From Candidatus Latescibacterota bacterium (GTDB lineage: Bacteria > Krumholzibacteriota > Krumholzibacteriia > WVZY01 > JAKEHA01), in the NCBI GenBank assembly GCA_963761125.1, contig CAVXFV010000002.1, positions 207,963-271,962 on the forward strand: a DNA stretch of 64,000 nucleotides, in the 5' to 3' direction. Each line of letters opens with the position of its first letter. The first letter of the stretch is position 1. Made by a program: the position numbers and the translations under genes. Shown here in pieces: positions 11,096-43,800 of this stretch. The notes beneath the pieces are model-generated. The model was not told the DNA's origin. It saw only the letters and a program-made list of their open reading frames with translations, and did not search any database.

Positions 11096-11536
11096 CTAAC
11101 CGGTCGACTGCGCGAGCGCCATACGGATGGTTTCGCCCATTTTCTGCGCCCGTTCGCCGGTGTGCCTGCGCGGCGGCCGCTTCGAGCGCTCCTGCGGGGA
11201 AAGATGTCGAGGCGGCGCAACGCCGTGGCGACACAGTAGAGCGACAGGTCTCCGGGCGCCGAGTTTGACCGGCGCGTTCTTTGGATCGATGACGTGCACG
11301 GCCGCCTTCGTCTTCACGTCGGCGACCTCGGGAACCGCGAACACCACGCCCGTCGCGTCCATCGCGGCGAGCCGGTGGCCCACCTTGGCGACGCCGTCGG
11401 CGCTCAAGAGAATCATCGCGTCGGGCCGGTCGACGGCAGTGTAGTCGATCTCGGTCGGACTCAACACGAGTTCGGCGATGCTGTGTCCGCTTTTCACCGT
11501 GATGGGATAATCGTCGCGCTGCGCCGCCCACAAACC
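11096..11536 (-). CDS. 2-oxoacid:ferredoxin oxidoreductase gamma-type domain (frame-shifted continuation of the beta subunit gene)
   Basis: ORF 11096..11590 reads LWAAQRDDYPITVKSGHSIAELVLSPTEIDYTAVDRPDAMILLSADG. This continues the gamma-domain start (PFHLVIAGSAGGKVRSSARLVGDAALLSG) that sits in the korB frame. The C-terminal ~50 codons look partly out of frame. Confidence 0.65.
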   Translation of the reverse strand, partial: GLWAAQRDDYPITVKSGHSIAELVLSPTEIDYTAVDRPDAMILLSADGVAKVGHRLAAMDATGVVFAVPEVADVKTKAAVHVIDPKNAPVKLGARRPVALLCRHGVAPPRHLSPQERSKRPPRRHTGERAQKMGETIRMALAQSTG

Positions 11537-12437
11537 CGGAGAGCAGCGCCGCGTCGCCGACCAGCCGCGCCGACGAGCGCACCTTTCCACCCGCGGACCC
11601 GGCGATCACCAGGTGAAACGGCCGCGCGAGTGACGATGCGAATTGCGGCGTAATCGGATTCGGCGCGAGAAGCGGCTTGCCCCTTGCGGATGCCGACGCC
11701 TCGCGGTACGCCGCGACGTATTCGGTGCGTTCCGCGCGGTGCAGCAACCCCGACTGCATCTCCAGATCAGTCATGAGGGTCGTCAGCGTTTTCTTCGACG
11801 CCTTGTTCTTCGGCATGTAGTACGCGGTGCACAACTCCCAGATATCGAGCAGCGCGAAACAATCCGCACGCACCGCCTCGGCGATTCGCTCCGGCAGGTC
11901 CTTGTCGAAGTTCGTCCCGCGCCACACGTAGCCGGCGCCGTTCGCGGCCACCGTCGCGCAGATGTCGAGCGGGCGTTCCATGCTTCCCGACGGTGTCGTG
12001 CTGGTGATCGACCCGGGCGGTGTCGTCGTCGAGTGCTGACCGCCCGTCATGCCGAAGTTGAAGTTGTTGAAGACGAGGACGGTCAGACCGATGTTGCGGC
12101 GCGCGGCGCTCAAGAGGTGCGCGCCACCGATGCCGGTGCCGCCGTCGCCCATGACCACGATCACCGTGAGGTCGGGACGCGCGAGCTTGATGCCGGTGGC
12201 GTAGGTGATGCTCCGCCCGTGCAGTCCATGAAACGCGCTCGTGTCGAAATACTGGTCGGAGAGTCCCGAGCACCCGATGTCGCTCACGATCACGATCTTC
12301 GTCGGATCGATGGCGAGCGATTCCAGCGCCGCACTCAAATGATCGAGAATGGCGTGATGGCCGCAGCCCGGGCAAAACGGGTACGCCTTGTCGTTCCGGT
12401 ACCGCGCCAGCGTGGTGATGGTGGTCGGATCGCTCAT
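11535..12437 (-). CDS. korB: 2-oxoacid:ferredoxin oxidoreductase beta subunit (TPP-binding), fused to a gamma domain; frame breaks near 11535
   Basis: From the ATG at 12437 the frame of ORF 10929..13376 reads MSDPTTITTLARYRNDKAYPFCPGCGHHAI...VVMGDGGTGIGGAHL (TPP motif). The start forms an ATGA overlap with the korA stop. As assembled this frame reads through to 10929 with implausible R-rich sequence. Confidence 0.8.
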
Positions 12438-19879: not shown

Positions 19880-21804
19880 TTACCCGACCGGGGAATTCCC
19901 GGCAAGGCCACTGCCCGGAATCCGCATATCGCCGCGCCGAACCGTGACCCGGCGGGCGTCGAGGTACTCCAGGAGCGGAACCGCGTGCTTGCGCGACACC
20001 CCCAATGCATCCCGGATATCGCCGACGGTGATTTCCGGGCGCGTCGCAAACAGCGCACGCACAGCGTCCAGGCATCGGCTCATTGCCGTGACGTGCATGA
20101 GACCGTCCCCCACCTCGACCGCGCGATTCGCCTCCCGCAGGTAGCGGGCGGCCTCCGCGAACGGCTCCGGCGCCGACCACGCACGTTCCGCCTCGGCGCG
20201 CGACAGAAAGGCGACACCGGCCGCTTCCAGCGCGCGGTCGAGCGCGGCGAGAGCATCGCGCAGCCCGGGCGTGAGGTGGATGTCCGAATCCCCCGCCCGA
20301 ACGCGGTCTTCGCGGACGAACAGCGGGTGCGTCGCGGAGACGACGTCGATGACGCGGTTGAACAATGCGGCCGGGTGCGGGAAATCGACGCGGCGACGGA
20401 GTTCCTCCTTGTCGATACCCCATTGCAATGGATGTCGGGACGTGTGCTGCGTCGCCAGCGCGATCGCGCGCTCGGCCAGCGCGTCGAGCGCATCCCGCGC
20501 GAAAACGCGGCCCGCGATTGCCGTCGCGTCGCCGCGCGCGAGGATCGGCGCCGCAGTTTCCGCGTCGATGTCCGCCTCGACCAGGCCGTTCATTCCGGCG
20601 CGTTCGATCATCCGCGCGAGGATCGTTTCCGGATCGCCTTGCTCGCGCGTCGTCAGTCGCTCGATCACCGATGCGTCGTGGCGCCGGTGCACGTCGGCGC
20701 GCGCGTCGATCACCCGTCCGCCCGCGATGACGCGCGGCGGCGAATAGCGCCTGAACACCAGCCGGTCGCCCGCGTCCGTCACCATCGGAGACTCCAGGCG
20801 GAGCTGCGCCAGCGCGGTGCCGTCCGCTCCCAGGTCGTCGGTGTTCAGCAGCACGACGCGGCCCAGCAGTTCGCGGGCGCCGTGGTGCACGCGCACGCGC
20901 TCGCGATTCTTCAACACGATGTCGTCGAGCGCGGTGAGCGTGATGCGCACGTCGACCGTGCGGCTCGCGACGAACCGCCCCGGCGTGGCCAGCGTGTCAC
21001 CGCGCGCAATCTGATCGAGTTTGACGCCGTGGAGCGCCAGCGCGAGTCGCTCGCCGGCGGTTCCCTGCGCGCGCTTTGCACCAAAACTCTGCACCTCGCG
21101 TACCCGCACGCGCAATCCCGACGGCAGGAGGTCGAGTTCGTCGCCGACGGCGACGCGGCCCGAGTAGCCGCTGCCGGTGACGACGACGCCGATCCCCTTT
21201 TGATGAAACACGCGGTCGATCGCCAGACGAAACGGGCCCGACGCATCCCGGCTTTCGATGCCGCGCGCGATCGCGAGCAGGCTCGCGCGCAGCGCGTCGA
21301 GGCCCGCGCCCGTTCGCGCCGACGCCTCGATGACGGGGGCGCCTTCGAGAAACGTACCGCGAACGAGTTCGGCGATCTCTTCCTTGAGCAACGGAAGCGT
21401 GTCGTCGGTCGCGAGGTCCGACTTGGAGATGACGACCACGCCGTGGCGTACGTCGAGCGCACGCAACACGTCGAGGTGCTCGCGCGTTTGTGGCATCACG
21501 CCTTCGTCCGCGGCGACCAGCAACAGGGCCAGGTCGATCCCGCCGGCGCCGGCCACCATCTGCCGCACGAAGCGCTCGTGACCGGGGACGTCGATGATAC
21601 CGACGAACACGTCATCCGCGAGCGCAAGCGGCGCAAAGCCGAGCTCGATCGAGATCCCGCGTTCCTTTTCTTCCTTCAGACGATCGGTATCGACGCCGGT
21701 GAGCGCCCGGACGAGTTCGGTCTTGCCGTGGTCAACGTGTCCGGCGGTGCCGAGAATGAAATGTCGCGCCGCCGCGGCGCCCGCGATGCCGTCCGGGGGT
21801 TCAC
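19880..21804 (-). CDS. selB: selenocysteine-specific translation elongation factor (start region disrupted or non-canonical)
   Basis: The in-frame G domain reads [16 protein letters not shown]...DVPGHERF...SKSD. The C-terminus is winged-helix ([29 protein letters not shown]). No canonical start lies in frame upstream of the P-loop. The GTG at 21804 is one base out of frame across a C5 run. Confidence 0.85.
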
Positions 21805-26444: not shown

Positions 26445-26951
26445 CTAGAATCCGCTCGCGGCCACGAAGCGGGCCACCGCCTCGTGGTGCTCCGCCCATG
26501 ATTCCCACACCGCCCGGGCCCAGGTTTCGGCCCGCTGCAGGTGGTCGGCGGCGTTTTCCGCGACCGCCACATCGAGGATCGTCAGGGGCGACGGAAACTC
26601 GGGAGGATCGAAGTGGGGCCACTCGCGGACGGCATCCGCGAGCCGCCGCAGCATGTCGGGAACCCGGCCGGGCTCCATGCAGATCGAAAAGGCGGCGTGG
26701 AGTCCCACGAGATGGACGTCGACCGACTTGTCCGGGTGCTTGCCGCCGGCGTGTTGCACCGCGTACGCGTCCACGATCATCTGGTGGACGGGTCCGTGGG
26801 TTTGCGGATTGCTGAACGACACCGCGAGGACTTCCTCGAAGATCACCCAGCACTCCGGCGAACTATTGAAATAGCCGTCGTATCCGGCCTTCGGACTCGG
26901 CGGCATCTGAAGTCCGCACCCCGGGCACTCGCGTCGCACTTTGCTAGACAT
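26445..26951 (-). CDS. DUF5946-like hypothetical protein
   Basis: It has an N-terminal CPGCG and VHQMIVDAYAVQHAGG, a pattern I associate with DUF5946. This is from memory only. Confidence 0.55.
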   Translation of the reverse strand: MSSKVRRECPGCGLQMPPSPKAGYDGYFNSSPECWVIFEEVLAVSFSNPQTHGPVHQMIVDAYAVQHAGGKHPDKSVDVHLVGLHAAFSICMEPGRVPDMLRRLADAVREWPHFDPPEFPSPLTILDVAVAENAADHLQRAETWARAVWESWAEHHEAVARFVAASGF

Positions 26952-32385: not shown

Positions 32386-32512
32386 GCGCGTGAGTATACG
32401 CGATGTCGCGAGGATTGTCGCACGGCACGCGGGGTCCGCCTGAAAAACGTACACGCACGCCGGTGAACCGGCGCGCGTGCGCGTGCAGAACGAACTTCGG
32501 GGCCGCGAGGAG

Positions 32513-32890
32513 CTACTTGCGGCAGCCCAGAATTTCCTGAATGCGGTCGATCAGCCGGCTGGGACTGAACGGCTTCACGATATAGTCCACCGCCCCGACT
32601 TCATAACCGAGCCGCTTGTCCAGGTCGCGTCCCTTCGCGGTCAACAGCACGACCGGGATGTTCTTCGTCTCCGGATCGCGCTTCAGACGCCGGCAGGTCT
32701 CGTAACCGTCGAGCACCGGCATCATGACGTCGAGAACGATGAGATTCGGCTTTTCCTGCTTGGCCTTCTCGATCGCCAGCTCGCCGTTGTTCGCGGTAAT
32801 GACCTCGAATCCTTCGGCTCCCAGGCTGAAGTCGAGAATGTGCAGAATATAGACCTCATCGTCGACGATGAGAATTTTGCCGAGCGCCAT
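32513..32890 (-). CDS. single-domain response regulator (CheY-like)
   Basis: It is REC only at 125 aa and contains ILIVDDE...LIVLDVMMPVLDG...TAKG...DYIVKPF. Confidence 0.9.
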   Translation of the reverse strand: MALGKILIVDDEVYILHILDFSLGAEGFEVITANNGELAIEKAKQEKPNLIVLDVMMPVLDGYETCRRLKRDPETKNIPVVLLTAKGRDLDKRLGYEVGAVDYIVKPFSPSRLIDRIQEILGCRK

Positions 32891-32913
32891 TGTGTCCTCC
32901 TTACAAAAGCTGT

Positions 32914-35900
32914 CTAGTGCGCATTTCGCTCGCTACCGGCGTGCGCCGCCGTTTCGCAGTCTTCATGTTGAAAGCTGGCTTCGTTCCGAATCACAGAACT
33001 CACGAACACGTCGACCACCTTCGGATCGAACAGCGTCCCCGAGCGATGCTTCAATACTTCGAGCGCCTCTTTCAGGCTGTACCGTTTCTGATAGGGCCGG
33101 TGCGATACCAGCGCGCGGAACGTGTCCGCCACACGAATGATCCGCGCCTCCAATGGAATCTCGTCGCCCGACAATTTGCCGGGATAGCCGGTGCCGTCGT
33201 AGTTCTCGTGGTGGTAGAGCACGGCGTCTCGCACCCGCGGAATGAACTCGATCGGCTTGAGCATGTCCGTCCCCACGATCGTATGCATCTCCAGGTGGTC
33301 GCGGTCCTCGAGCGACAACTCGCGTGGTTGCTTGATGATGTTGTGCCCGATCTTCGCCAGGCCCAGGTCGTACACGTTGAAGACGTAGCGCAACGTGGCG
33401 TTTTCGTCCGCGCTCATGCCCAGACGTTCGGCGACGTCCCGGAGCACGGTTGACAGGGCCTCGCCGGTGTCGCGGTCGATATACCGCTTCGCGTCGAGGA
33501 TCGACTTGAAGGTGGAACGCACGTCCTCGAATTCTCGCGAGCGCTCCTTGAAATTCGACAGCGCGTCCAGCGCGAGTACCACGCGCTCCGCGAATAGATC
33601 CAGAAGCGCGCGGTCCGCGTCGTCGAGCGCGTCGCGTCCCACCGGATCGGTGACGTTGATCACGCCGATGACCCGGCCGTCGCGCCGCAACGGCACCGAC
33701 AGGAACGACTTGGATTCGTAGCGGCGGCCGTTCGACGAGATGCCCAGGCGGTCGTCACTCTCGATGTTGCGCACCAGAAACGCATCGTTGCCCTTGACCA
33801 CGCGTCCGGAGATTGCGTCGCCGACCCGCACACGCGCGTGTTCGACGACATCTTCGTCGAGCCCGATCGCGCTCTCGATGCGGAGTTCGTCGCCGTTCTC
33901 GTCGACCAGCATCAGCGACGCACGTTTGACGTGCAGCAGTTCGGCGACGAGTTCGACCACGAGTTCCATGTAGCGCTCGACTTCGAAGCGCCGCGTCGAC
34001 ACGTAACCGCTCAGGAGCTCGCTGCGGACGATGGCCTGCTTCTTCGGGATCACGACCACGAATCGCGCGCCCCGTCCCGGCACGTTCTCCACCCAGATGC
34101 GACCGTCGTGCCACTCGACGATGTTCTTGCAGATCGCGAGCCCGATGCCGGTGCCGCCGTGACGGCGCGTGTTGGTGGCGTCGACCTGATGGAAATGATC
34201 GAAGATCTTTTCGATCTGATCGTCGGGAATGCCGATGCCGTTGTCTTCGACGATGATGCGAGCGCTCACGACTTCGTCTTCCAGGCGCACCCAGACGTGC
34301 CCGCCCTCGGGCGTGAACTTGGACGCGTTGTGCAGCAGGTTCAGCACCAGCTGTTTCATCAGGTCGCGCTCGGCGCGCACCTTGACCTCGCCCGGCGGAA
34401 GCTGGGCGTTCAGCGTGATACGCTTGCCTTCGAAATTCTTCTCGAGTTCGCCGGCCGCGACTTCGACGATTTCATTGAGATTGCACGACGTCCGCTCGAA
34501 CCGGACCGCGCCGGATTCCATCTGCGAGAAATCGAGGATATCCTCGATCAGCGTCATCAGCCGCGAGCTCTCCTCCTGGATGACGATCAGGAACTCCTTG
34601 AGGATCTCCCGGTCGATGGACGCCGCGTTCTTGAGCAGCGTTTCGCAGTAGGCCTGGATCGACGTGAGCGGCGTGCGGAACTCGTGCGAAATGGTCGCGA
34701 CGAAGTTCGACTTCATCTTGTTGAGGCTCGACAGCTTGTCGGCGTACTGCTTGAGCTTCTCGTTCTTCTCGCCGACCTCGCGATACCGGTTGAGATTGCG
34801 GATGGCGATGGTCGCGAGCGTCGCGATGGTCTCCAGTGTTTCGATCACGTCGACGACCGACCGATTCGGGTCCTCCGGCTCTTCGACGGACAGGTATCCG
34901 ATGGTCCGTTCGCCCGCGTCGTCGTCGACCAGCGGCACGATCAGGCGCTCGACTTCGTCCCACTGTCCAGCCACGAGCACCGCGTCTCCGTCGCCGTTCG
35001 GCGAACGGGCGGGCTCGGACACCGGTGTGAGGTTCTTGAGAAAGTAGCTCCGGCCGACGCGGAAGCGCGGCTCGATCATCATTTGATACTCGGGAACCGT
35101 GATGCGGTGGTTCATCACCGCTTCCTGCGCGTCGGGGTTGAGTCCGACATAGGCCTTCGGTTCGAAACTCTGCGTGCGGTCGTTGAGCAGCCGGATGATC
35201 ACGGTCTCGAAGCCGAGGCTCTCGCGCACGAGTTCCGCCACCATCTGCAGGAGCTCCTTGACGTTCTTGTGCTGCTGGATCCGAATGCCGATCTCCAGCA
35301 TCCGTTCCTTGTCGTCCGCGCGGCGGACGAGCGCACGCGAGTGGTCGCGCTGGCGCCGGATCATGGAACTCGAGTCTTCGTACATGTCCGAGGCGACGCG
35401 ACTGAGAAGGCTCAACTCGCTGTGCGCCTTCTCGGCTTCGAACGATTTCTCCTCCGCCTGGCGGCGCATGCGCGTCCCCACCACGATGTAGACGGTCTGC
35501 AACGCGAGCAGTCCGGTCACGAGGGCGAGGATGTCGGCGACCTGCGCGGACCGCAGCAGAATCGAGGACAGCGGGCCGGTCGCCGCGCCGACGCCGACGA
35601 CGCACAGCCACGAAGCGATCAGCGACGCCGCGAAGATGAACAGGGTCGGACGAACTTCCGGAATTGCCGTGCGCGCCGCCGATACCAGCGCGCCGCTGAT
35701 GCGGATGGTGGCGCCCAGGAGGATCGCGCTCAGGAGTCCGACGAACGTGACGCCGGGCGTTTCCGGCACGATCGCGTACAGAAGTCCCGCGCTCAATCCG
35801 AACACGGCGGTCTGATACTTGACCGCGCGCCACTCGGCGTCGGTGAACGTTCCGTAGTGCCGGGCCGTTGCATCGAGTGCGGGGTCGGGGGACTCCAGAA

Positions 35901-36225
35901 CCGGCGGAATCTGCACGTCGTTGACGCCGACGGGAATGCAACGCGCCGCAAGATACAGGAAACCGAAGTTCAGCAGCAGAAACAAAAACGGCGGAGCGGT
36001 CGTCGTCGCCAGCATGGTGGCGCTGAACACGACCACGGTAACGCGACTGGCCCCGAACGCGAGCGCCGCGAACGTGCGGCAGAAGAACAACGACGAGTTG
36101 GTCGTCACTGTCTCGCGCCACATCGCCAGGAACAACAGCATCACCAGTACCCCGCACATGGCGAGGTACGTCGTCGGAGCCGACGGCCCGGTGATCTGCG
36201 CGACGATAATGTTCGAAATCGGCAT
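32914..36225 (-). CDS. multi-TM sensor histidine kinase with GAF-HisKA-HATPase-GAF-HD-GYP architecture (HD motif is YD)
   Basis: It is 1103 aa with an N-terminal polytopic region. It has the H-box SHEFRTPLTSI, the G-boxes DNGIGIP and GGTGIGLAI, and a second GAF. The C-terminal domain has HHENYDGTGYP, but NVYDLG where HDxGK is expected. Confidence 0.9.
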   Translation of the reverse strand: MPISNIIVAQITGPSAPTTYLAMCGVLVMLLFLAMWRETVTTNSSLFFCRTFAALAFGASRVTVVVFSATMLATTTAPPFLFLLLNFGFLYLAARCIPVGVNDVQIPPVLESPDPALDATARHYGTFTDAEWRAVKYQTAVFGLSAGLLYAIVPETPGVTFVGLLSAILLGATIRISGALVSAARTAIPEVRPTLFIFAASLIASWLCVVGVGAATGPLSSILLRSAQVADILALVTGLLALQTVYIVVGTRMRRQAEEKSFEAEKAHSELSLLSRVASDMYEDSSSMIRRQRDHSRALVRRADDKERMLEIGIRIQQHKNVKELLQMVAELVRESLGFETVIIRLLNDRTQSFEPKAYVGLNPDAQEAVMNHRITVPEYQMMIEPRFRVGRSYFLKNLTPVSEPARSPNGDGDAVLVAGQWDEVERLIVPLVDDDAGERTIGYLSVEEPEDPNRSVVDVIETLETIATLATIAIRNLNRYREVGEKNEKLKQYADKLSSLNKMKSNFVATISHEFRTPLTSIQAYCETLLKNAASIDREILKEFLIVIQEESSRLMTLIEDILDFSQMESGAVRFERTSCNLNEIVEVAAGELEKNFEGKRITLNAQLPPGEVKVRAERDLMKQLVLNLLHNASKFTPEGGHVWVRLEDEVVSARIIVEDNGIGIPDDQIEKIFDHFHQVDATNTRRHGGTGIGLAICKNIVEWHDGRIWVENVPGRGARFVVVIPKKQAIVRSELLSGYVSTRRFEVERYMELVVELVAELLHVKRASLMLVDENGDELRIESAIGLDEDVVEHARVRVGDAISGRVVKGNDAFLVRNIESDDRLGISSNGRRYESKSFLSVPLRRDGRVIGVINVTDPVGRDALDDADRALLDLFAERVVLALDALSNFKERSREFEDVRSTFKSILDAKRYIDRDTGEALSTVLRDVAERLGMSADENATLRYVFNVYDLGLAKIGHNIIKQPRELSLEDRDHLEMHTIVGTDMLKPIEFIPRVRDAVLYHHENYDGTGYPGKLSGDEIPLEARIIRVADTFRALVSHRPYQKRYSLKEALEVLKHRSGTLFDPKVVDVFVSSVIRNEASFQHEDCETAAHAGSERNAH

Positions 36226-36240
36226 CGTGGTCGCCCCGTG

Positions 36241-37488
36241 TTACCCCTTCGACGCACCAACCGGCGGCTCGGCGAGCTGGCGCTTGTAGCCCCGCTCGTC
36301 GTGCGTCGACAGTTTACCGTCTTCCTTGAGAACGCTGATGAACGCCTCGACGACGTCGCGGTCAAACTGACCGCCCGAGTGATCGACCAGGTCGCGGACG
36401 GCCTCCTCGACCGTACGGCGCGTGCGATACGGACGGCCGATGGTCATCGACTGAAAGGCATCGATCGCCGCGAGGATGCGCGCACCGATCGGGATCTCGT
36501 CGCCCTTGAGGCCCATCGGGTATCCCTTCCCGTCCCAGCGCTCATGGTGATACAGAATGATGTTGCTCACCGCTTCGACGAACTCCAGCGGCCGGATCAG
36601 CTCGGCGCCGCGCTCCGGATGGCGCTGGATCCTCATCATTTCTTCCGAAGACAAATTGAGCGTCTTGTTGAGAATTTCGTCGCTGATCTCCGTCATTCCG
36701 ATGTCGTGCACGCTTGCCACGTACTGAATGACGCTGACTTCCTTTTCGGGAAGCCGCAGCTTGCGCGCGACCTTGACCGCGTGATCGACCGCCTGCTCGA
36801 TGACCTTGGTTTTCGTCTGCATCTCCAGCATGCGCCGGAACGCGTCGACCGTGTCCTGCAGGAACGTATGCGAGTCCTCGACCATGCGCACCCGCTCCAG
36901 AGCACGCGAGATGCGTTCGCTGAACGAGATCAGCAGATTGAGGTCGTCGTGATCGAACGGATTGCCGTTGATCTTGTTGTTCACGTTGATCACGCCGACG
37001 ATCACGTCGTTGACCCGGAGCGGCACGCTCAGGAGCGATACGGTTTCGTACTGCGGTCCGTTCGGCGCGGTGAAGAACTCGTTCTCTTCGATATTGCTGA
37101 TCAGCAACGGCTCGCCGCGCTCCACCACCATGCCGGCGATTCCCTGACCCACCTTGACGCGCGTGTTCTCCACCACCCATTCCTCGATCCCGTACGACAT
37201 CTTGATGAATAGCTCCGCGCGGGCTTTGTCGAGCAGCATGAGCGAGACGCGCTTGGCGTTCAGCAGCTCGGCGATCATTTTGACGATCAGTTCGAGCATC
37301 TCGTGGAGCTGCTCGCGCGCGTCCACGAGTTCGCCGATGTAACCGATCAGATCGTTGAAGCAGTGCTCGCGCGGCAGCGTGAAGTAGAACGTGCTGCCGA
37401 CGTTTTCGGTGCTGTCGACGCGCACCGCGCCACCGTGCTGCTCGACGATGTTCTTGACGATCGCGAGCCCCAGTCCGAGGCCTTCCAT
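36241..37488 (-). CDS. C-terminal fragment of paralogous kinase: end of HATPase, GAF, HD-GYP
   Basis: ORF 36241..37488 begins MEGLGLGLAIVKNIVEQHGG (G2 box), followed by a GAF. The HD-GYP domain has VHDIG and HHERWDGKGYP. Confidence 0.85.
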   Translation of the reverse strand: MEGLGLGLAIVKNIVEQHGGAVRVDSTENVGSTFYFTLPREHCFNDLIGYIGELVDAREQLHEMLELIVKMIAELLNAKRVSLMLLDKARAELFIKMSYGIEEWVVENTRVKVGQGIAGMVVERGEPLLISNIEENEFFTAPNGPQYETVSLLSVPLRVNDVIVGVINVNNKINGNPFDHDDLNLLISFSERISRALERVRMVEDSHTFLQDTVDAFRRMLEMQTKTKVIEQAVDHAVKVARKLRLPEKEVSVIQYVASVHDIGMTEISDEILNKTLNLSSEEMMRIQRHPERGAELIRPLEFVEAVSNIILYHHERWDGKGYPMGLKGDEIPIGARILAAIDAFQSMTIGRPYRTRRTVEEAVRDLVDHSGGQFDRDVVEAFISVLKEDGKLSTHDERGYKRQLAEPPVGASKG

Positions 37489-37503
37489 CTTGGACGCCTT
37501 GTG

Positions 37504-39274
37504 GCGCGCGCGTCCGAAAATATTTGTCGAAGACGCTTCCGATCTCGTCGCGTGGAATACCGACGCCCTGATCGGTGACGGACACCAGAATGTTGACGGC
37601 CTCTTCGCGGGCGGCCACCGAGACCGTCGTTCCGCGCGGCGAATACTTTAGCGCGTTGGAGATCAGATTGATGAACACCTGCTTGATCAGGTCGGCGTCG
37701 CCGTCGATTCGCGGCAGGTCGGCCGGCACGTCGACCTCGACCGACACGTCGCGCTCCTGGAGCGATGGGCTCAGCATCGAGACCACCTCTTCGACGACTG
37801 CGGCGAGGTCGATGGGTGCGCGGGCCACGGGACGCTGGCCGAATTCGATCTTCGACACGTCGAGGACGTCGCCCACGATCCGGATCAGGCGGTTCGATTC
37901 CTTGTTGATGATGTCGAGGAACTCGCGCTTCTGAGCGAACATCGGATCGTCGATGTTGCCAAGCAAGGTCTCGACGTACGCCTTGATCGAAGTCAGCGGC
38001 GTCCGCAGTTCGTGCGACACGTGCGACACGAAGTCGGATTTCAGGATGTTGGCCTTGTGCAGCGTGTCCATCTGGCGTTCGAGTTCGCGGATTTTCCGCT
38101 CGAGCGAGTCGTACAGGCGGCTCTTCTCGATCGCGTTCGACAATTGCTGGCTCAGCGTCGTGATCAGGCGCATATGCGGCTCGGTGACCGACTTGGGCAT
38201 GAAGTCGCCCGTATAGATGACGCCCGTCACCTGCTTTCCCGCGGACAGGGGAAATCCCACCAGCGAGCGGATCCCGAAACGATTCAGGAATTCGCTGCAG
38301 TTCGCGCGCTTGTCGCGGGTCGTGTCCTCGACGACGATCGGCGTATTATGCGTCCAGATCCACTCGCTCAGCCCACCGCGACGCATCTTCCGTTCGAGCT
38401 TGGCCTCGCGGTTCTGATTCACCCCGACGAAGACCGAGTGCGTGATCTCCTGCTTCTGATTGAACAGCACGATGCTTGCCCACGGACGGTCGAGCAGGAG
38501 CGTCGCTTCCTTGGCGACGATCTTGAGCAGTGTCTCCAGCGACATCGCCGCGTTGATGCCGGTGCTGATGTCGTAGAGCCGGGTGAGTTCGTCGATCCGC
38601 GATTCGCTTTCCTGTTTCTTGCGGCGCATCCGTTCCAGAGAGCTGTTGAGCCGGTCCTGGAACGCGTTGGACAGGAAGATGACCAGGCTGATGAACGCGG
38701 CCATCACCAGCAGTGAACCGGCGACGTAGTGACCGTTTTCGAACACGCCGGGCGCGCTGCGATAGACGGTCTCGTGCGGGATGGAGCCGTGCATCTCCAG
38801 GTAGCCGAGGACGGCGATCGCGGAAATCGACGCCGACACGAAATACGCCGCCGTGACCTTCCACGGGAACGTGTTGCACACGAAGAACAGCGGAATCGTG
38901 AGCAGGAACAGGAAGGGGCTCTCGATGGTTCCGGTGAGCCAGATCAGCGCGATGACGGCGGCGAGATCGACGTAGCTCGAATACCACAACAGCGCCGAGT
39001 TCTTGCGCTTCTTATCCCAATCGAATCCGTCGCCGACCGCGTCCCACAGCCATTCACCCACGTATTGCAGCAACGCCGCGACCAGGAACAACCCGACCAT
39101 GGCGTTGGTGCGATACGTGAAGTCGCCCAGGAAACGCGCGGCGAACACGATTGCGAAGAACGCAACGAGTTCGACGAATCTCAGGTACAAGATGCTCAAC
39201 GGACTGGACTCCAGCGCCCGTGGACTCGCGTCCCAGGCGGATGATCGATTCACGGCAACACCACCCCCGCCCAT
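37504..39274 (-). CDS. N-terminal fragment of paralogous sensor histidine kinase: TM region, GAF, HisKA, most of HATPase
   Basis: The meaningful part of ORF 36542..39274 runs up to ...GIPRDEIGSVFDKYFR and includes the H-box SHELRTPLTSI. After ~37504 this frame turns R-rich. The alternative start GTG 39253 gives a GTGA overlap with the upstream kinase's stop. Confidence 0.85.
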
Positions 39275-40083
39275 CGGTCGCTGCTCGACAGGGGGAGCGT
39301 GACGTGCACCGTGGTGCCCTTACCGGGTTCGCTGCGAATTGAGATTTCTCCCCCACACATGTCGACCAGACTGCGGACGAGGGTCAGTCCCAGGCCCGTG
39401 CCGTCCATCCGGGTGTCGTCCAGCCGTACGAACGGCCGGAAGATGCGCTTGATATCGTCCTGCCCGACGCCTTCGCCCTCGTCGGTCACCCGGATGCGCA
39501 GAAGCTCTCCGTCCGCGGCGCCGCGCTTCTCGCGCGCCGTTTCTACCTCGAGTCGCACGGGTTTGTCCTGCGGCGAATAAGCCAGCGCGTTTTCCAGAAG
39601 ATTGATCACGATCAGCTTGAGCGCGTTTCGATTCAGCATCGCCGCGGGAATGTTTCCGTCGTTCGATGTCTTCAGCCGCCTGCGCGCGCCGAGATCCTCG
39701 GGAAGTTGTCCGGCAGCTTCTTCGATGACACGGGACACGTCCACCGGCCCCACCTTCGGTTCGCCCGTTCCGCCGTCCACCTTGAGCAGGTCCAGGTAGA
39801 ACGCGTTGAGTTCGACCAGCAGATCCGCCTCGGCGCGCGCCTTGTCGATGTACGCGACGAGTTCCTTCGCGCCCGCCTTCTCCGCGTCCTCGCGGGCCAA
39901 CTCGAGGTATCCGCAGATGGCGGTCGTCGGGCGTTTCAGCTCGTGTCCCATCACCAGGCGCGTCGACGCGATGATGCGGCGATAGCGTTCCAGCCGGATG
40001 CGCAACTCGTTGGCCTCGATACGGGCCTCGTTGAGCAATGCTTCGACGGTCGCGGTCTTGTCATCTGCCGTGCGAATGTCCAT
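39250..40083 (-). CDS. soluble histidine kinase (coiled-coil, HisKA, HATPase)
   Basis: It has the H-box MGHELKRPTTAI, the N-box INLLENALAY and G-boxes DEGEGVG and GTGLGLTLV. No TM segment is evident. Confidence 0.85.
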   Translation of the reverse strand: MDIRTADDKTATVEALLNEARIEANELRIRLERYRRIIASTRLVMGHELKRPTTAICGYLELAREDAEKAGAKELVAYIDKARAEADLLVELNAFYLDLLKVDGGTGEPKVGPVDVSRVIEEAAGQLPEDLGARRRLKTSNDGNIPAAMLNRNALKLIVINLLENALAYSPQDKPVRLEVETAREKRGAADGELLRIRVTDEGEGVGQDDIKRIFRPFVRLDDTRMDGTGLGLTLVRSLVDMCGGEISIRSEPGKGTTVHVTLPLSSSDRWAGVVLP

Positions 40084-40093
40084 TGGTGTTCCC

Positions 40094-41068
40094 CTATTTC
40101 TGCCGGGTCATGTGGCCCGGAATGTCCTGACGCCGTTCTTTGACGACCACACTTCCCTCGATCCGCTTCCCATAATCCTTGAGGCTCGTGGCGATATCGT
40201 TCACTTCGGCGAAGTGCTCGATCTGATTGTCCGTGCTCTTGACCAGCGCGATGGTCACCGACATCACCGGGATGCGCTTGAGTTCGCCCTGGCGATCCCG
40301 GATCTCCAGATACCCGCGCTTGACGTCTTCCGGGTTGAGCAGGAGAAGCGCGCCCTTGTCGAACTCGTCGATCACGTACTGCGCCATGATCTCCGCGCGC
40401 GACGGCGACACCACCATCACGAAGTCGTCGCCGCCGATGTGCCCTACGAAATCGTCGGGGCCGCCGAGTTTCTGAACCGTGCGACGCAGAATGTCGGCCA
40501 TGAACTCGATGATCTCGTCGCCCTTCTGGTAGCCGTAGTAGTCGTTGAAGCCCTTGAAATTGTCGATGTCGAGGTACAGAAACGCGTACGGCGTCTTCTG
40601 CGCGACGCGCGCGATCATTTCGCGTTCGATCGCGGTGTTGCCCGGGAACCCGGTGAGCGGGTTGGCTTCCTTCTGGCGGATGTTCCACTCGAGCACGTTG
40701 CGCACACGCAGGAGCAACTCTTCGTTGGAGTACGGTTTTACCAGGTAGTCGTTGGCGCCGCCTTCGAGGCCGGCCACGCGATCGCGCTGCTCGCCGCGGG
40801 CGGAGAGCATGATCACCGGGATCTGGTTCAACGTGAAATCCTGTCGCATTTTGCGACAAACCTCATAGCCGTCTATCTTCGGCATCATCACGTCGAGCAG
40901 CACGAGACTCGGCTTGATTTCCGCCGCGCGCATCAGCGCTTCCTCGCCGTCCGAAGCCGTGAACACCGAATACCCCGCTCGCTCCAGAGTGAAGCGCAGG
41001 ATCTGCCGGATGTGTGGCTCGTCGTCGGCGACGAGGATGCGGTAGGTCGAGTTGTCTGGTGCTTGCAT
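40094..41068 (-). CDS. response regulator with GGDEF-type output domain (motif GGDDF)
   Basis: I chose the start ATG 41068 because a GAGG lies 5 nt upstream. The REC domain reads ILVADDE...LVLLDVMMPKIDG...DYLVKPY. The GGDEF-like domain reads LTGFPGNTAI...YLDIDNFKGFNDYYGYQKGDEII...HIGGDDFVMVV. Confidence 0.9.
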   Translation of the reverse strand: MQAPDNSTYRILVADDEPHIRQILRFTLERAGYSVFTASDGEEALMRAAEIKPSLVLLDVMMPKIDGYEVCRKMRQDFTLNQIPVIMLSARGEQRDRVAGLEGGANDYLVKPYSNEELLLRVRNVLEWNIRQKEANPLTGFPGNTAIEREMIARVAQKTPYAFLYLDIDNFKGFNDYYGYQKGDEIIEFMADILRRTVQKLGGPDDFVGHIGGDDFVMVVSPSRAEIMAQYVIDEFDKGALLLLNPEDVKRGYLEIRDRQGELKRIPVMSVTIALVKSTDNQIEHFAEVNDIATSLKDYGKRIEGSVVVKERRQDIPGHMTRQK

Positions 41069-41292
41069 ATCGCCTCGAACGTGAACTCCGAACGACACTT
41101 AACGCGATCCCAACGGGCAAGGAGCATGCCAAGGGTCACGCCGCGACGCGGAGCGCGCGGGCGGTTGAATCCACACTGCGTTTGCACGAACCGCGCCGGG
41201 GAATTGCGTGTGCAACGACGCGCAGCGACGCGCCTCGACGAGGCATCACCAGGAACGATGAGGAACGGAAACGCCGCGCGCGGAGACGCGCG

Positions 41293-41697
41293 TCAGCTCT
41301 GCAACTGGCGGCGACGTCCCAGGAACGCGAAAGCGAGCAGCGCGATCGTCGCCGCCGCGAAGGACAAGGGTGCGCCATTTTCGACGCCCCGCGGGGTCGC
41401 CCCCATGAAGTCGAATCCGGGCGCGTGCTGGATCAGCGCGTACCACATCAACGTGTAGAGCGCCTCGAAGAACTTGCTCGACCCCGTCCAGATGCCGAGT
41501 GCCAGCGACAACGCAGGCACGAACGCCGCGCCGACCACCCACCCGAGCAACGCGCCGGTTTCACCGGCCATCATGAGGCGAAGCGCGATGGGGCCCGCGG
41601 CGATCACACTCACGCCGACTCCCGCAAGCCAGGTCGCGGGGAGCTGGCGGGTGAGCGCTCGCGGCGCCGAAAAGAACAGCGGCGCGGTTCCATGACG
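41293..41697 (-). CDS. C-terminal fragment of ABC-2-like permease
   Basis: From ...RHGTAPLFFSAPRALTRQLPATWLAGVGVSVIAAGPIALRLMMAG... ORF 41293..41751 is hydrophobic and continues the upstream permease after a 1-nt frame change. Confidence 0.7.
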   Translation of the reverse strand, partial: RHGTAPLFFSAPRALTRQLPATWLAGVGVSVIAAGPIALRLMMAGETGALLGWVVGAAFVPALSLALGIWTGSSKFFEALYTLMWYALIQHAPGFDFMGATPRGVENGAPLSFAAATIALLAFAFLGRRRQLQS

Positions 41698-41698
41698 G

Positions 41699-42919
41699 AA
41701 TCTCGCGCGTGCCCAGACGCGACCACAGCAGGACGGGCCACAACCACGCAAACGGCAGCACGGGAAACCGAAGGGTGGCCACGGGCATGAAGATCGACAT
41801 GATGGCGATGGCCAGCGGGCCGAGATACCACGCGCGCAGGCCGCGGGTCAGCAGCTTCCACTCGGCAACGATCATCGCGCCCGGTCGCGCGCGGCGTGCC
41901 GCTGCGTCGAGGGGGGTCAGATGGACGTCAGGGGCGACGCGCGCGGTTTCGATCGCCGGCGGACCCTCGCTTGCGGGCGCCCCGCGACGGAACCGGCGGC
42001 GCCGACGCCGGCGGCTCACGCGCCCGAAGGTCGCGGCCGAGTCGAAGCGATCGAATGGAATCGCCGCGACGGCGGCGATTCCGAGGCCCACCGCCATCCA
42101 CATCGACCGCCACTCCACCATCTTCATCGTCCACGGAATGCCGTCCCACCGGAACGTCGACAGGGTCCACGTCCCGGCTTCGCGGATGTTGATCCCCATC
42201 GACATCGACGGATGCGCGGGGTCGAAGGTCGGATACGCATGAAAACACGCCGCGATGATGCTCGGCCACGCGACGCCAATGCCGATGACGTCGTTTTGCG
42301 GGCCGTTATATCCGCCGAAGTTGAATCCATTTCCGAGGAGCCCGCCCCAAGCGACCACGTAGAGCACGTTGCCGAGTCCGCCCCGCAGGCCGGGGATGGT
42401 CTCGAACACCACGGCCAGGCCGGCCGTCACCATCATCGCCGGAAGCGTCAGCAGAACGAACGGCGAGAGCAGCGCCCATGGATGAATCGCCGAGTCCTCG
42501 GCGCGCATGAGTTGCATGCCGAACGCGGCGACGGCGACGACGCACGTCATCGCGGCAAGCACCGAGAAATTGCTCAACGCTTTGCCGACGGTGTACTGCA
42601 CTTTCGACACCGGCGTGGCCGCCAGAATCTGGCCGACACCGCTCCGGCGATCGCGGTCGATGGTGTTCTTGACCAGATAGAAACCGATCAACGACAGAAA
42701 CGCGGCGGTGAGCAACGCCAGCGTGGTTCCGATCCACGCGGAATTGTAGACGCCGCGGTAATCTTCGACGCGGAGCGTCACGTACCGGCTCGTCTGTGGC
42801 GGAACGAACGCATAGCCGGCGCACACGCACGCGACGAGCGTGATCAGGAATCCGTAGCGCCGAACGCGCTCCAGGAAATCCGCGCGCGCCAGATGATACA
42901 GCCGGCGCGCGACGATCAT
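41699..42919 (-). CDS. large ABC-2-like transporter permease, N-terminal fragment
   Basis: ORF 41561..43120 trimmed to the ATG at 42919 (MIVARRLYHLARADFLERVRRYGFLITLV...), which forms an ATGA overlap with the ATPase stop. It is polytopic. The frame loses its hydrophobic character after ~41699. Confidence 0.75.
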
Positions 42920-43800
42920 GCGGGGACGGCCTCGCGGGCGGGCGCGATGTGGAGCAGATACGCGTCTTCGAGCGTGGGGCCGACGGTCTGCGCGGCGGGC
43001 GCGGGGCGCTCGTCGGCGACGGCGCGAACGCGGACACCGTCGCTTCGGCGCAACGTTCCGCTGACGCGATAGCGCTTCTTGACGTCGGCGAGTTCCGCGC
43101 TGGTCACGATCCACTCCCACACTTTCCCCTCGACCGATCGCAACAACTCCTCGGGCGCGGCGCTGGCGACCAGCCGCCCGCGATTGATCAGCGCGATGCG
43201 CGTGGCCGTGGCTTCGACGTCGGAAACGATGTGGGTGGAGAGAATCACGATGCGCTCGCCGGACAGTTCCGAGAGCAGATTACGAAAGCGCACGCGTTCC
43301 TCGGGGTCGAGGCCCGCGGTCGGTTCGTCGACGATCAAGAGTTCGGGGTCGTTGAGAAGCGCCTGCGCGATCCCGACGCGCTGGCGCATTCCACCCGAGA
43401 AGCCGCCGAGCGGGCGCCTGCGCACATCGCTCAGATTGACGACCAGGAGCAACTCGTCGATCCGCTTGCGCGCCGCGCGCGCGTCGACGCCCTTCGCCGC
43501 CGCGACGTATTCTAGAAACTCCTGCGCCGAGAGATTCGGATAGATGCCGAAGTCCTGCGGCAAATATCCGAGGACGTTCCGGACCGCGTCGGGCGACCGC
43601 CGCACGTCGGTGCCGTTCCACAACACGCGACCGCTCGTCGGACGCGTGATCGTGGCGAGGATGCGCATCAGCGTGGACTTGCCAGCGCCGTTGGGGCCGA
43701 GCAAACCCAGGACGCCGGGAGCGAGGTCGAGCGAAAAGTCGTCGAGGCCGCGCACACCGCCCCGGTACGTCTTGCCCACGCGTTCGATGGAAAGCTTCAT
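42916..43800 (-). CDS. ABC transporter ATP-binding protein
   Basis: ORF 42916..43977 trimmed to the ATG at 43800 (MKLSIERVGKTY). It has Walker A GPNGAGKST, signature FSGGMRQRV and Walker B LLIVDEPTAGLD. Confidence 0.9.
   Translation of the reverse strand: MKLSIERVGKTYRGGVRGLDDFSLDLAPGVLGLLGPNGAGKSTLMRILATITRPTSGRVLWNGTDVRRSPDAVRNVLGYLPQDFGIYPNLSAQEFLEYVAAAKGVDARAARKRIDELLLVVNLSDVRRRPLGGFSGGMRQRVGIAQALLNDPELLIVDEPTAGLDPEERVRFRNLLSELSGERIVILSTHIVSDVEATATRIALINRGRLVASAAPEELLRSVEGKVWEWIVTSAELADVKKRYRVSGTLRRSDGVRVRAVADERPAPAAQTVGPTLEDAYLLHIAPAREAVPA

Follow-up and report, generated by a model that had tools for sequence, protein, structure and literature searches.

The operon and its products

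The subject of this report is a five-gene signalling operon found in a 64-kb stretch of contig CAVXFV010000002.1 from a Candidatus Latescibacterota bacterium (the whole stretch analysed is called the window below). Two of its histidine kinases, HK-A and HK-B, end in a GAF domain and an HD-GYP-like domain from which one part of the catalytic site is missing, and these tails may sense a cyclic dinucleotide, or dock the protein that makes it, rather than degrade it. All five genes lie on the minus strand within 32513-41068, the first encoding a REC-GGDEF protein and the last a CheY, and they are closely packed, with, in the order of transcription, a spacer of 10 nt, an overlap of 25 nt and spacers of 15 and 23 nt. 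The operon structure given in a first-pass annotation of this DNA (five minus-strand genes, 10-25 nt apart or overlapping) agrees with both the coordinates and the spacings. In the same order, the products are a response regulator of 324 amino acids (aa) that joins a receiver (REC) to a GGDEF-like domain with the signature GGDDF (REC-GGDDF; 40094-41068, with its ATG at 41068; Pfam Response_reg and GGDEF), a small soluble histidine kinase of 277 aa (small HK; 39250-40083; HATPase_c and weak HisKA), HK-B (36241-39274), whose gene is split between two frames, HK-A of 1103 aa (32914-36225) and a stand-alone receiver of 125 aa that resembles CheY and DivK (32513-32890; Response_reg).

All Pfam domains in the five genes score far above their gathering thresholds. 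HK-A consists of ~6-7 transmembrane (TM) segments, as judged by a crude hydropathy scan, a GAF domain, HisKA (aa 504-572, E = 1e-19), HATPase_c (aa 620-729, 3e-31), a second GAF domain (aa 752-887; Pfam matches GAF in two stretches) and the HD-GYP-like domain (aa 922-1070, nt ~33016-33462). HK-B follows the same order, with ~6 TM segments by the same scan, GAF (aa 246-382), HisKA (aa 412-478, 2.8e-18), HATPase_c, a second GAF and the HD-GYP-like domain (nt ~36352-36789). The placing of HD-GYP domains at both C-termini by the first-pass annotation is confirmed by the profile HD_5, with 119 bits for HK-A (2.3e-34) and 128 bits for HK-B (3.5e-37) at a cutoff of 27.2, and the motifs it quoted, SHEFRTPL and SHELRTPL, HHENYDGTGYP and HHERWDGKGYP, are all present. 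The single architecture that it gave to the two large kinases is borne out by the order of the Pfam domains, but HK-B is split by a frameshift and the HD of HK-A reads YD. No receiver stands between kinase and HD-GYP-like domain: Response_reg is without a match in HK-A, HK-B and small HK at E ≤ 0.01 in Pfam, and it is likewise missing from the precomputed Pfam sets of ~200 orthologues, so these are not hybrid kinases.

The small HK has an N-terminal coiled coil, a HisKA-like H-box reading GHELKRPT and a HATPase_c domain (7e-27; HisKA is weak at 1.6e-4), with neither a TM segment nor a sensor domain. Orthologues of 275-277 aa occupy the same position in loci of Krumholzibacteriota, Latescibacterota and Chitinivibrionia. 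As read from translations and orthologue alignments, the H, N, G1, F and G2 boxes are intact in all three kinases, the ATP lid of HK-B being interrupted in the window by the frameshift, and the His of the H-box does not vary among 79 HK-A and 4 HK-B sequences. Both receivers retain the DD pair, the phospho-acceptor Asp and the Thr/Ser and Lys residues, within the conserved motifs DDE, LDVMMP, LTAKG / LSARG and VKP (Response_reg 4e-31 for REC-GGDDF and 5e-29 for the stand-alone protein), and the operon indeed closes with an intact stand-alone CheY-like protein, as first annotated. Helix 1 of the dimerisation and histidine phosphotransfer (DHp) domain is near-identical in HK-A and HK-B (SHE[FL]RTPLTSI[QK]AY[CV]ETLL), and the first helix is similar in the two receivers (DDE..I..IL.F[TS]L). 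This is as expected if both large kinases address the same receivers, and fits convergent partner specificity.

Of all the proteins of the cluster, the stand-alone receiver is the best conserved, with 96-97 % identity in close relatives, and in the most distant operons it is still 54-72 % identical where PriA, encoded next to it, falls to 31-50 %. Across phyla (L005-L078), the receiver ranges from 54 to 97 % identity and the adjacent PriA from 31 to 77 %. That it is more conserved than PriA points to unusually strong constraint on the CheY-like protein.

Conservation of gene order

Full-length homologues of HK-A number ~85 (45-79 % identity); almost all of them have its Pfam set, and those with a name are labelled Krumholzibacteria. 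Beyond these ~85 there is a cliff to generic kinases. Three loci whose HK-A homologues are 71, 57 and 45 % identical (L001, L002 and L004) share the order glnE, P-II, tsaD, REC-GGDEF, small HK, HK-B, HK-A, CheY, priA, TPR, rho, L31, DUF1385, RF1. An alignment scan with HK-B over one genome per GTDB species gave 320 relatives, from which the best 79 distinct loci were kept; 84 loci (L001-L084) were fetched in all and annotated by BLAST with domain-sized queries.

The first-pass annotation had left conservation of the gene order to be checked, and the order REC-GGDDF / (small HK) / HK / HK / CheY / priA is found in ~75 of the 79 GTDB species loci that were the best of the 320 relatives. The complete string REC-GGDDF / small HK / HK-HDGYP / HK-HDGYP / REC / priA occurs in 31 of the 84 loci, most of the others being versions truncated by the end of a contig. 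Record titles of the operon loci name Krumholzibacteriota, Latescibacterota, Chitinivibrionia, 'Fibrobacteraceae' and Eisenbacteria. Variants of the arrangement include Eisenbacteria-type loci without the small kinase, single-kinase operons (L062, L064 and L067) and at least four loci with an extra single-domain receiver between the two kinase genes (L052, L053, L057 and L060), to which the fragmented locus L074 appears to add another. The loci with the extra receiver are titled 'Fibrobacteraceae' or are untitled.

The most distant matches, with titles of Planctomycetia and Omnitrophota, are ordinary REC-GAF-HD-GYP proteins and not kinase fusions. Transfer of the HK-B gene in L006, where the operon neighbours are 62-86 % identical, was considered and rejected, since direct codon comparison gives 80 %. 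A metagenome-assembled genome titled Nitrospirota (L075, 6164-8486) encodes a YD-type kinase-GAF-HD-GYP protein on a fetched stretch that carries no operon genes, and this kinase could be mis-binned or could be a transfer.

Residues kept and lost in the HD-GYP-like tails

The tails were compared with the GAF-HD-GYP cyclic di-GMP phosphodiesterase PmGH of Persephonella marina (PDB 4MCW), whose residue numbering is used here and whose eight metal ligands were placed by residue-level alignment. The family residue table comes from a MAFFT alignment of all HD-GYP regions from the fetched loci, in which the kinase-fused set comprises 135 sequences, 54 of YD type and 81 of HD type. D222, H250, H276, H277, E278, the GYP loop (Y285) and D305 are invariant in 135 of 135 kinase-fused tails, all of which keep the loop HHExxDGxGYP, and R314 is mostly kept. 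The position of H189 is never His in either paralogue, K225 is replaced by Met in B-type tails and by Leu or Met in A-type tails, D308 by Gln, Glu, Val or Arg, and the D183 position is variable. HK-A has in addition YD instead of HD, with Tyr in 79 of 79 close orthologues and YD in all 54 HK-A-type sequences (the downstream paralogue) outside Eisenbacteria. The HD of HK-B is kept and is invariant in the 81 kinase-fused HD-type sequences, and in Eisenbacteria both kinase paralogues keep HD. The REC-GAF-HD-GYP proteins of L079-L082, aligned together with the tails as a positive control, have D183, H189, HD, K225, H250, HH, Y, D305, D308 and R314, which indicates that the alignment columns are trustworthy.

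The loss is coherent, in that it takes the H-site ligand H189 and the stabilisers K225 and D308, with H221 in HK-A, while the remaining His and Asp ligands of the G- and M-sites, the Tyr that makes a hydrogen bond to the substrate phosphate and the RPY nucleotide contacts persist. The HD-GYP assignment of the first-pass annotation is thus upheld by the profile and by the retained HH and GYP motifs, but the first metal-binding His is missing from both modules. In PmGH, the mutations H189A, H221A, D222A, H250A, H276A and H277A essentially abolish hydrolysis of cyclic di-GMP (c-di-GMP), and D183A, K225A and D308A have an effect similar to that of the ligand mutants (PMC4159591). H189 is among the seven ligands common to both HD-GYP subfamilies of the phylogeny in that paper, between which only E185 varies (PMC4159591). 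By the yardstick of these mutants both tails should be inactive, HK-A doubly so. The His of VDHAVKV in HK-B was considered as a substitute for H189 and rejected; it is out of register by seven residues, and the family consensus has Leu in its place.

The C-terminal part of HK-B (415 aa, in frame) was modelled with AlphaFold at a predicted local distance difference test score (pLDDT) of 78, and a Foldseek search with the model places 4mcw (PmGH) on top (E = 3.7e-16) and 9rbz (DvhD) at rank 3. By phmmer the tails match PmGH at 1e-22 to 1e-29, and the best PDB sequence match of both is V-cGAP3, which is specific for cyclic GMP-AMP (cGAMP), at a score nearly equal to that of PmGH. The tails share with PmGH the GAF-HD-GYP order and D222, H250, H276, H277, Y285, D305 and R314; H221 is shared by HK-B only. 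PmGH is, in contrast, a stand-alone soluble enzyme with eight metal ligands, whereas the tails stand behind a complete histidine kinase and are without E185, H189, K225, D183 and D308, those of HK-A also without H221.

Two other proteins with an HD-GYP fold have lost metal ligands and serve as receptors or regulators rather than enzymes. DvhD, a PAS-HD-GYP protein of Desulfovibrio vulgaris (PDB 9RBZ and 9RC0), binds c-di-GMP without hydrolysing it (PMC13090378), and no phosphodiesterase activity is detectable in the YN-GYP protein PA2572 of P. aeruginosa (PMC3411652), which shows the same change of His to Tyr at the HD motif as HK-A. Neither is fused to a kinase, and DvhD, unlike the tails, has lost both HD and HH (which read SQ and MN), whereas the tails keep HH, H250 and D305, and HK-B also HD. 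The tails lack four residue-level features of the active HD-GYP family and are best read, on the alignment, as working more like DvhD or PA2572.

The first-pass annotation had instead suggested a push-pull circuit, in which the tails would be active phosphodiesterases, gated by the second GAF domain, that degrade the c-di-GMP made by a REC-GGDDF protein phosphorylated by the same kinases. HD_5 E-values of 1e-34 to 1e-37, a domain order shared with active PmGH, which is also the top fold match, the invariance of HD in HK-B and of H250, HHE, DGxGYP and D305 (with R314 mostly kept), the HD of both paralogues in Eisenbacteria, and a retained His/Asp set that could still hold one or two metals are all consistent with it. 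Yet H189, K225, D183 and D308 are missing from every kinase-fused member, and H221 from all YD-type HK-A; alanine at any one of these positions essentially inactivates PmGH, and both HD-GYP subfamilies of the phylogeny in PMC4159591 keep H189. We regard active phosphodiesterase tails as rather unlikely, and favour tails that would sense a nucleotide or dock the cyclase.

The frameshift in HK-B

In the window HK-B is not a single open reading frame (ORF). Its 5' part, of 590 codons (37505-39274), encodes the TM segments, GAF, HisKA and the first two-thirds of HATPase_c, and the ORF that contains it (36542-39274) represents real protein only as far as ...VFDKYFRTRA (HATPase_c profile positions 1-64), after which it continues as high-GC nonsense. 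The 3' part (36241-37503), with the end of HATPase_c, the second GAF and the HD-GYP-like domain, starts as (K)MEGLGLGLAIVKN... in another frame, in the ORF 36241-37488, which covers HATPase positions 71-110, GAF and HD_5. The frame is broken within 37503-37512 by a single extra base in the run CGCGCGCGCC near 37504. When base 37504 is removed, the frame is restored through ...FRTRAHKASKMEGLGLG... and a protein of 1010 aa results, whose mended junction has the same length as in intact orthologues.

It is most likely that the split is an assembly indel and not biology. More than 120 database homologues of HK-B are single proteins of ~1000 aa. L084, a JGI contig with 92 % identity to the window along 11.9 kb, has an unbroken frame at the site, where a DNA alignment shows CGGACGCGCGCGCCACAAGG in the window, one column longer, against CGGACGCGGGCA-CACAAGG in L084. 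A frame-contrast scan of the window found one other frameshift of the same kind. It lies near 11545 in a gene for a 2-oxoacid:ferredoxin oxidoreductase beta/gamma protein (11096-12400, minus strand), in a GGGTTTG run, where ...ARLVGDAALLSG goes on as LWAAQRDDYPITVKSG... in the ORF 11096-11590, and it suggests homopolymer indel errors in the assembly. That 64 kb should contain two indels, both in repeat or homopolymer runs, makes an artefact in HK-B the likelier explanation. A programmed frameshift was also considered and rejected, as the shift is seen in no relative and the DNA of the site is not conserved.

We consider it unlikely that this organism has a genuine, very recent HK-B pseudogene, or an HK-B gene that varies in phase at its (CG)n run, such that the operon would run on HK-A and the small kinase. 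The shift does lie inside a short dinucleotide repeat, and the record itself contains the shift, as the 415-aa fragment is called as a gene of its own on the deposited 734-kb contig; set against this are the intact gene in all relatives, including the one at 92 % DNA identity, the full coding signal and conserved residues in both halves, and the second frameshift, in a housekeeping gene and a homopolymer run of the same 64 kb, which suggests a general indel error rate. This question is separate from that of the mechanism, and its probability stands outside the sum of the three mechanism readings weighed here.

The REC-GGDDF protein and the HxGGDDF clade

The protein that opens the operon has its receiver at aa ~11-122 and its GGDEF-like domain at aa ~138-324 (nt ~40097-40657). 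Pfam supports both the receiver and the GGDEF domain of the original annotation (GGDEF at 3e-15 and 56.7 bits, cutoff 23.8), but the profile is covered only at positions 6-94 of 161 and the motif is GGDDF. The signature reads GHIGGDDF in the window protein and GH[IV]GGDDF in 65 of 65 orthologues across lineages; it departs from the canonical [G/A/S]G[D/E]E[F/Y], and a His takes the place of the usual Arg two residues upstream. The conserved segment 'DIDNFKGFNDYYGYQKGD' holds the metal-binding Asp of DxD-FK and the guanine-binding Asn and Asp, their equivalence to N335 and D344 of PleD resting on alignment to published motifs. There is no RxxD I-site, the corresponding residues being GPDD, GKDD or other variable sequences. 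PDB sequence alignments of the domain end shortly after the signature, so that Pfam and PDB alignments together reach only its first two-thirds, and the C-terminal third is divergent.

Among PDB entries, the REC-GGDEF cyclases PleD, WspR and DgcR match best in sequence and in fold, the fold matches being weak evidence at a pLDDT of 62 for the full-length AlphaFold model. NCBIfam gives only generic matches below cutoff; the best of them, the PleD family, scores 160 bits where 474 are required, so that the protein is not a member, and a homologue search with REC-GGDDF returned close orthologues only. When the domain at 40097-40681 of the window was searched against 1.84 billion cluster representatives (50 % identity), 738 clusters matched at E ≤ 1e-30, and G-H-x-GGDDF is present in 139 of the top 150 representatives (P0361-P0510). 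In ten members that were sampled, the input is REC, HAMP or kinase-REC, or there is a fusion to EAL, and one of the ten, P0372, is a REC-GGDDF-REC-HD_5 protein. On this sequence evidence HxGGDDF is a large, distinct and uncharacterised clade of GGDEF domains within architectures of the c-di-GMP type.

Cyclase activity of REC-GGDDF is plausible but unproven. The Geobacter Hypr cyclase GSU1937 shares the GGDDF signature and has demonstrated cyclic-dinucleotide synthase activity (PMC8835794), so the GGDDF motif alone does not imply a dead enzyme; experimental work on any other GGDDF enzyme was not found in the literature searched. In GSU1937, however, the specificity position is the Ser of Hypr enzymes and the input is a TM one, whereas the protein described here has Asp and a REC input. 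It appears very unlikely that HxGGDDF makes a different cyclic (oligo)nucleotide and that the altered tails are tuned to bind or cleave it, for although the co-ordinated changes of the catalytic loop (R to H, E to D) are kept in at least 738 clusters, GSU1937, the one GGDDF enzyme that has been tested, produces both cGAMP and c-di-GMP, and cGAMP-specific V-cGAP3 is the best PDB sequence match of both tails, the specificity position is Asp, as in D344 of PleD, rather than the Ser seen in Hypr cGAMP synthases, the Asn that contacts guanine is retained, clade members are fused to EAL domains and V-cGAP3 and PmGH score nearly the same.

Surroundings of the operon

Upstream of the operon, an intergenic region of ~225 nt (41069-41292, minus strand) presumably holds the promoter and leader. 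No riboswitch or other known RNA was found in the leader; at Rfam gathering scores no family matches anywhere in the 64-kb window. A scan for sigma-70-like promoters found none upstream of the operon, with counts equal to the shuffled expectation, and is uninformative for this lineage. Downstream, between the CheY stop and priA, pattern matching finds a terminator-like hairpin of 13 bp with 10 G-C pairs, followed by a T-run (32441-32480, minus strand); the count of such sites in the region is not above shuffled expectation.

The other genes of the window are housekeeping genes, such as gltX, ispDF, mla, dnaB, coaBC, gmk, selB, prfA, prmC and rho. In this genome an ABC transporter pair (41293-43800, minus strand; ATPase at 42916-43800 and an ABC-2-type permease within 41293-43120) is inserted between tsaD and the operon; in L001 and L002 the REC-GGDDF gene comes directly after tsaD with no ABC transporter between. 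A gene for a DUF5946 protein (26445-26906, minus strand) lies between rho and the L31 gene; the same gene is present in L084 and is not present in L001, L002 or L004. In the selB-like gene (19880-21700, minus strand) the G1 motif directly follows an in-frame stop with no ATG, GTG or TTG between, and either an ATT/ATC start or another sequence error would account for this.

Discussion

We favour, with a probability of roughly 0.55, the reading that the operon has been passed down vertically as a core signalling module in lineages labelled Fibrobacterota, Eisenbacteria, Latescibacterota and Krumholzibacteriota, in which the kinases would control a PleD-like cyclase and a DivK-like receiver, and the tails would sense a nucleotide or dock the cyclase and not degrade. 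The arrangement is strongly conserved, and a dedicated circuit is therefore very likely, as the self-contained circuit of the first-pass annotation supposed, but the phosphodiesterase side of that circuit is weakened by the lost residues. With the H-site dismantled (D183, H189, K225 and D308, and H221 in HK-A), the tails are read as something other than the opposing phosphodiesterase.

In the proposed circuit, HK-B, HK-A and, in this sub-lineage, the small soluble kinase would set the phosphorylation of two receivers, namely the PleD/WspR-like nucleotide cyclase REC-GGDDF, which would make c-di-GMP, and the DivK-like single-domain receiver. The tails would have no hydrolytic activity, or a very slow one at best, and would serve as receptors for cyclic dinucleotides and/or dock the GGDDF protein through the GYP loop; in the direction that we infer, they would feed the messenger level back onto the kinase/phosphatase balance. 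A more tentative proposal is that HK-A and HK-B are pseudo-HD-GYP receptor kinases, in which the cyclic dinucleotide made by the kinase's own HxGGDDF substrate might bind the kinase directly and reset phosphotransfer.

Several observations weigh against the favoured reading. The invariance across phyla of H250, HH, E and D305, and of HD in HK-B, could equally mean that a mononuclear or binuclear site still hydrolyses its substrate. That the tails are inactive is extrapolated from the alanine mutants of a single enzyme, PmGH, and the helix with the H189 position is the most divergent of the domain, so that a compensating ligand may lie elsewhere. The change of Arg to His and the divergent C-terminal third of the GGDEF domain, together with a model pLDDT of 62, leave the activity and the product of the cyclase uncertain, and the phosphotransfer partners are deduced from adjacency and helix similarity only. 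Receptor or docking tails, active phosphodiesterase tails and a nucleotide other than c-di-GMP are mutually alternative readings.

Known systems resemble the operon in part. RpfC/RpfG of Xanthomonas is likewise a two-component system coupled to an HD-GYP domain, but in Rpf this domain is on the response regulator and is driven by a receiver, whereas here it is on the kinase, with no receiver and an incomplete catalytic set. The GYP motif of RpfG is, as stated in PMC4159591, needed for complexes with GGDEF proteins and not for catalysis. The DivJ/PleC-DivK-PleD system of Caulobacter similarly combines several kinases with one single-domain receiver and a REC-GGDEF cyclase encoded together; PleD, however, has a second REC domain, an RxxD I-site and the motif GGEEF, the Caulobacter kinases are without an HD-GYP tail, and homology between the two systems is seen at the level of domains only.

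In CckA and SgmT the messenger binds the kinase itself and resets the kinase/phosphatase balance or localisation, a concept like the one proposed here, with the c-di-GMP site at the catalytic and ATP-binding (CA) domain of CckA and at the degenerate GGDEF I-site of SgmT.

Kinase-EAL fusions are known (PMC9756655). The literature searched describes no GAF-pseudo-HD-GYP receptor on a kinase and no receiver-less HisKA-HATPase-GAF-HD-GYP protein, and holds nothing specific on c-di-GMP signalling in these phyla. Each of the component domains is a textbook one, and it is the receiver-less kinase-GAF-HD-GYP fusion that is uncharacterised in this literature.

Our results make the kinase-HD-GYP fusion a syntenic core feature of several uncultured lineages, where it is common and ancient and not a one-off. 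Automated labels such as "HD-GYP phosphodiesterase" or "diguanylate cyclase" are unsafe for these proteins, and genes in the assembly are split by indel errors. That one metal sub-site is lost coherently while the rest is strictly kept leads to the prediction that the tails bind without hydrolysis, and the opening gene draws attention to a very large HxGGDDF subfamily. If the receptor reading is true, these proteins would form a new class of second-messenger-gated histidine kinase, and the system might in addition bring to light a GGDEF clade whose chemistry or product is altered.

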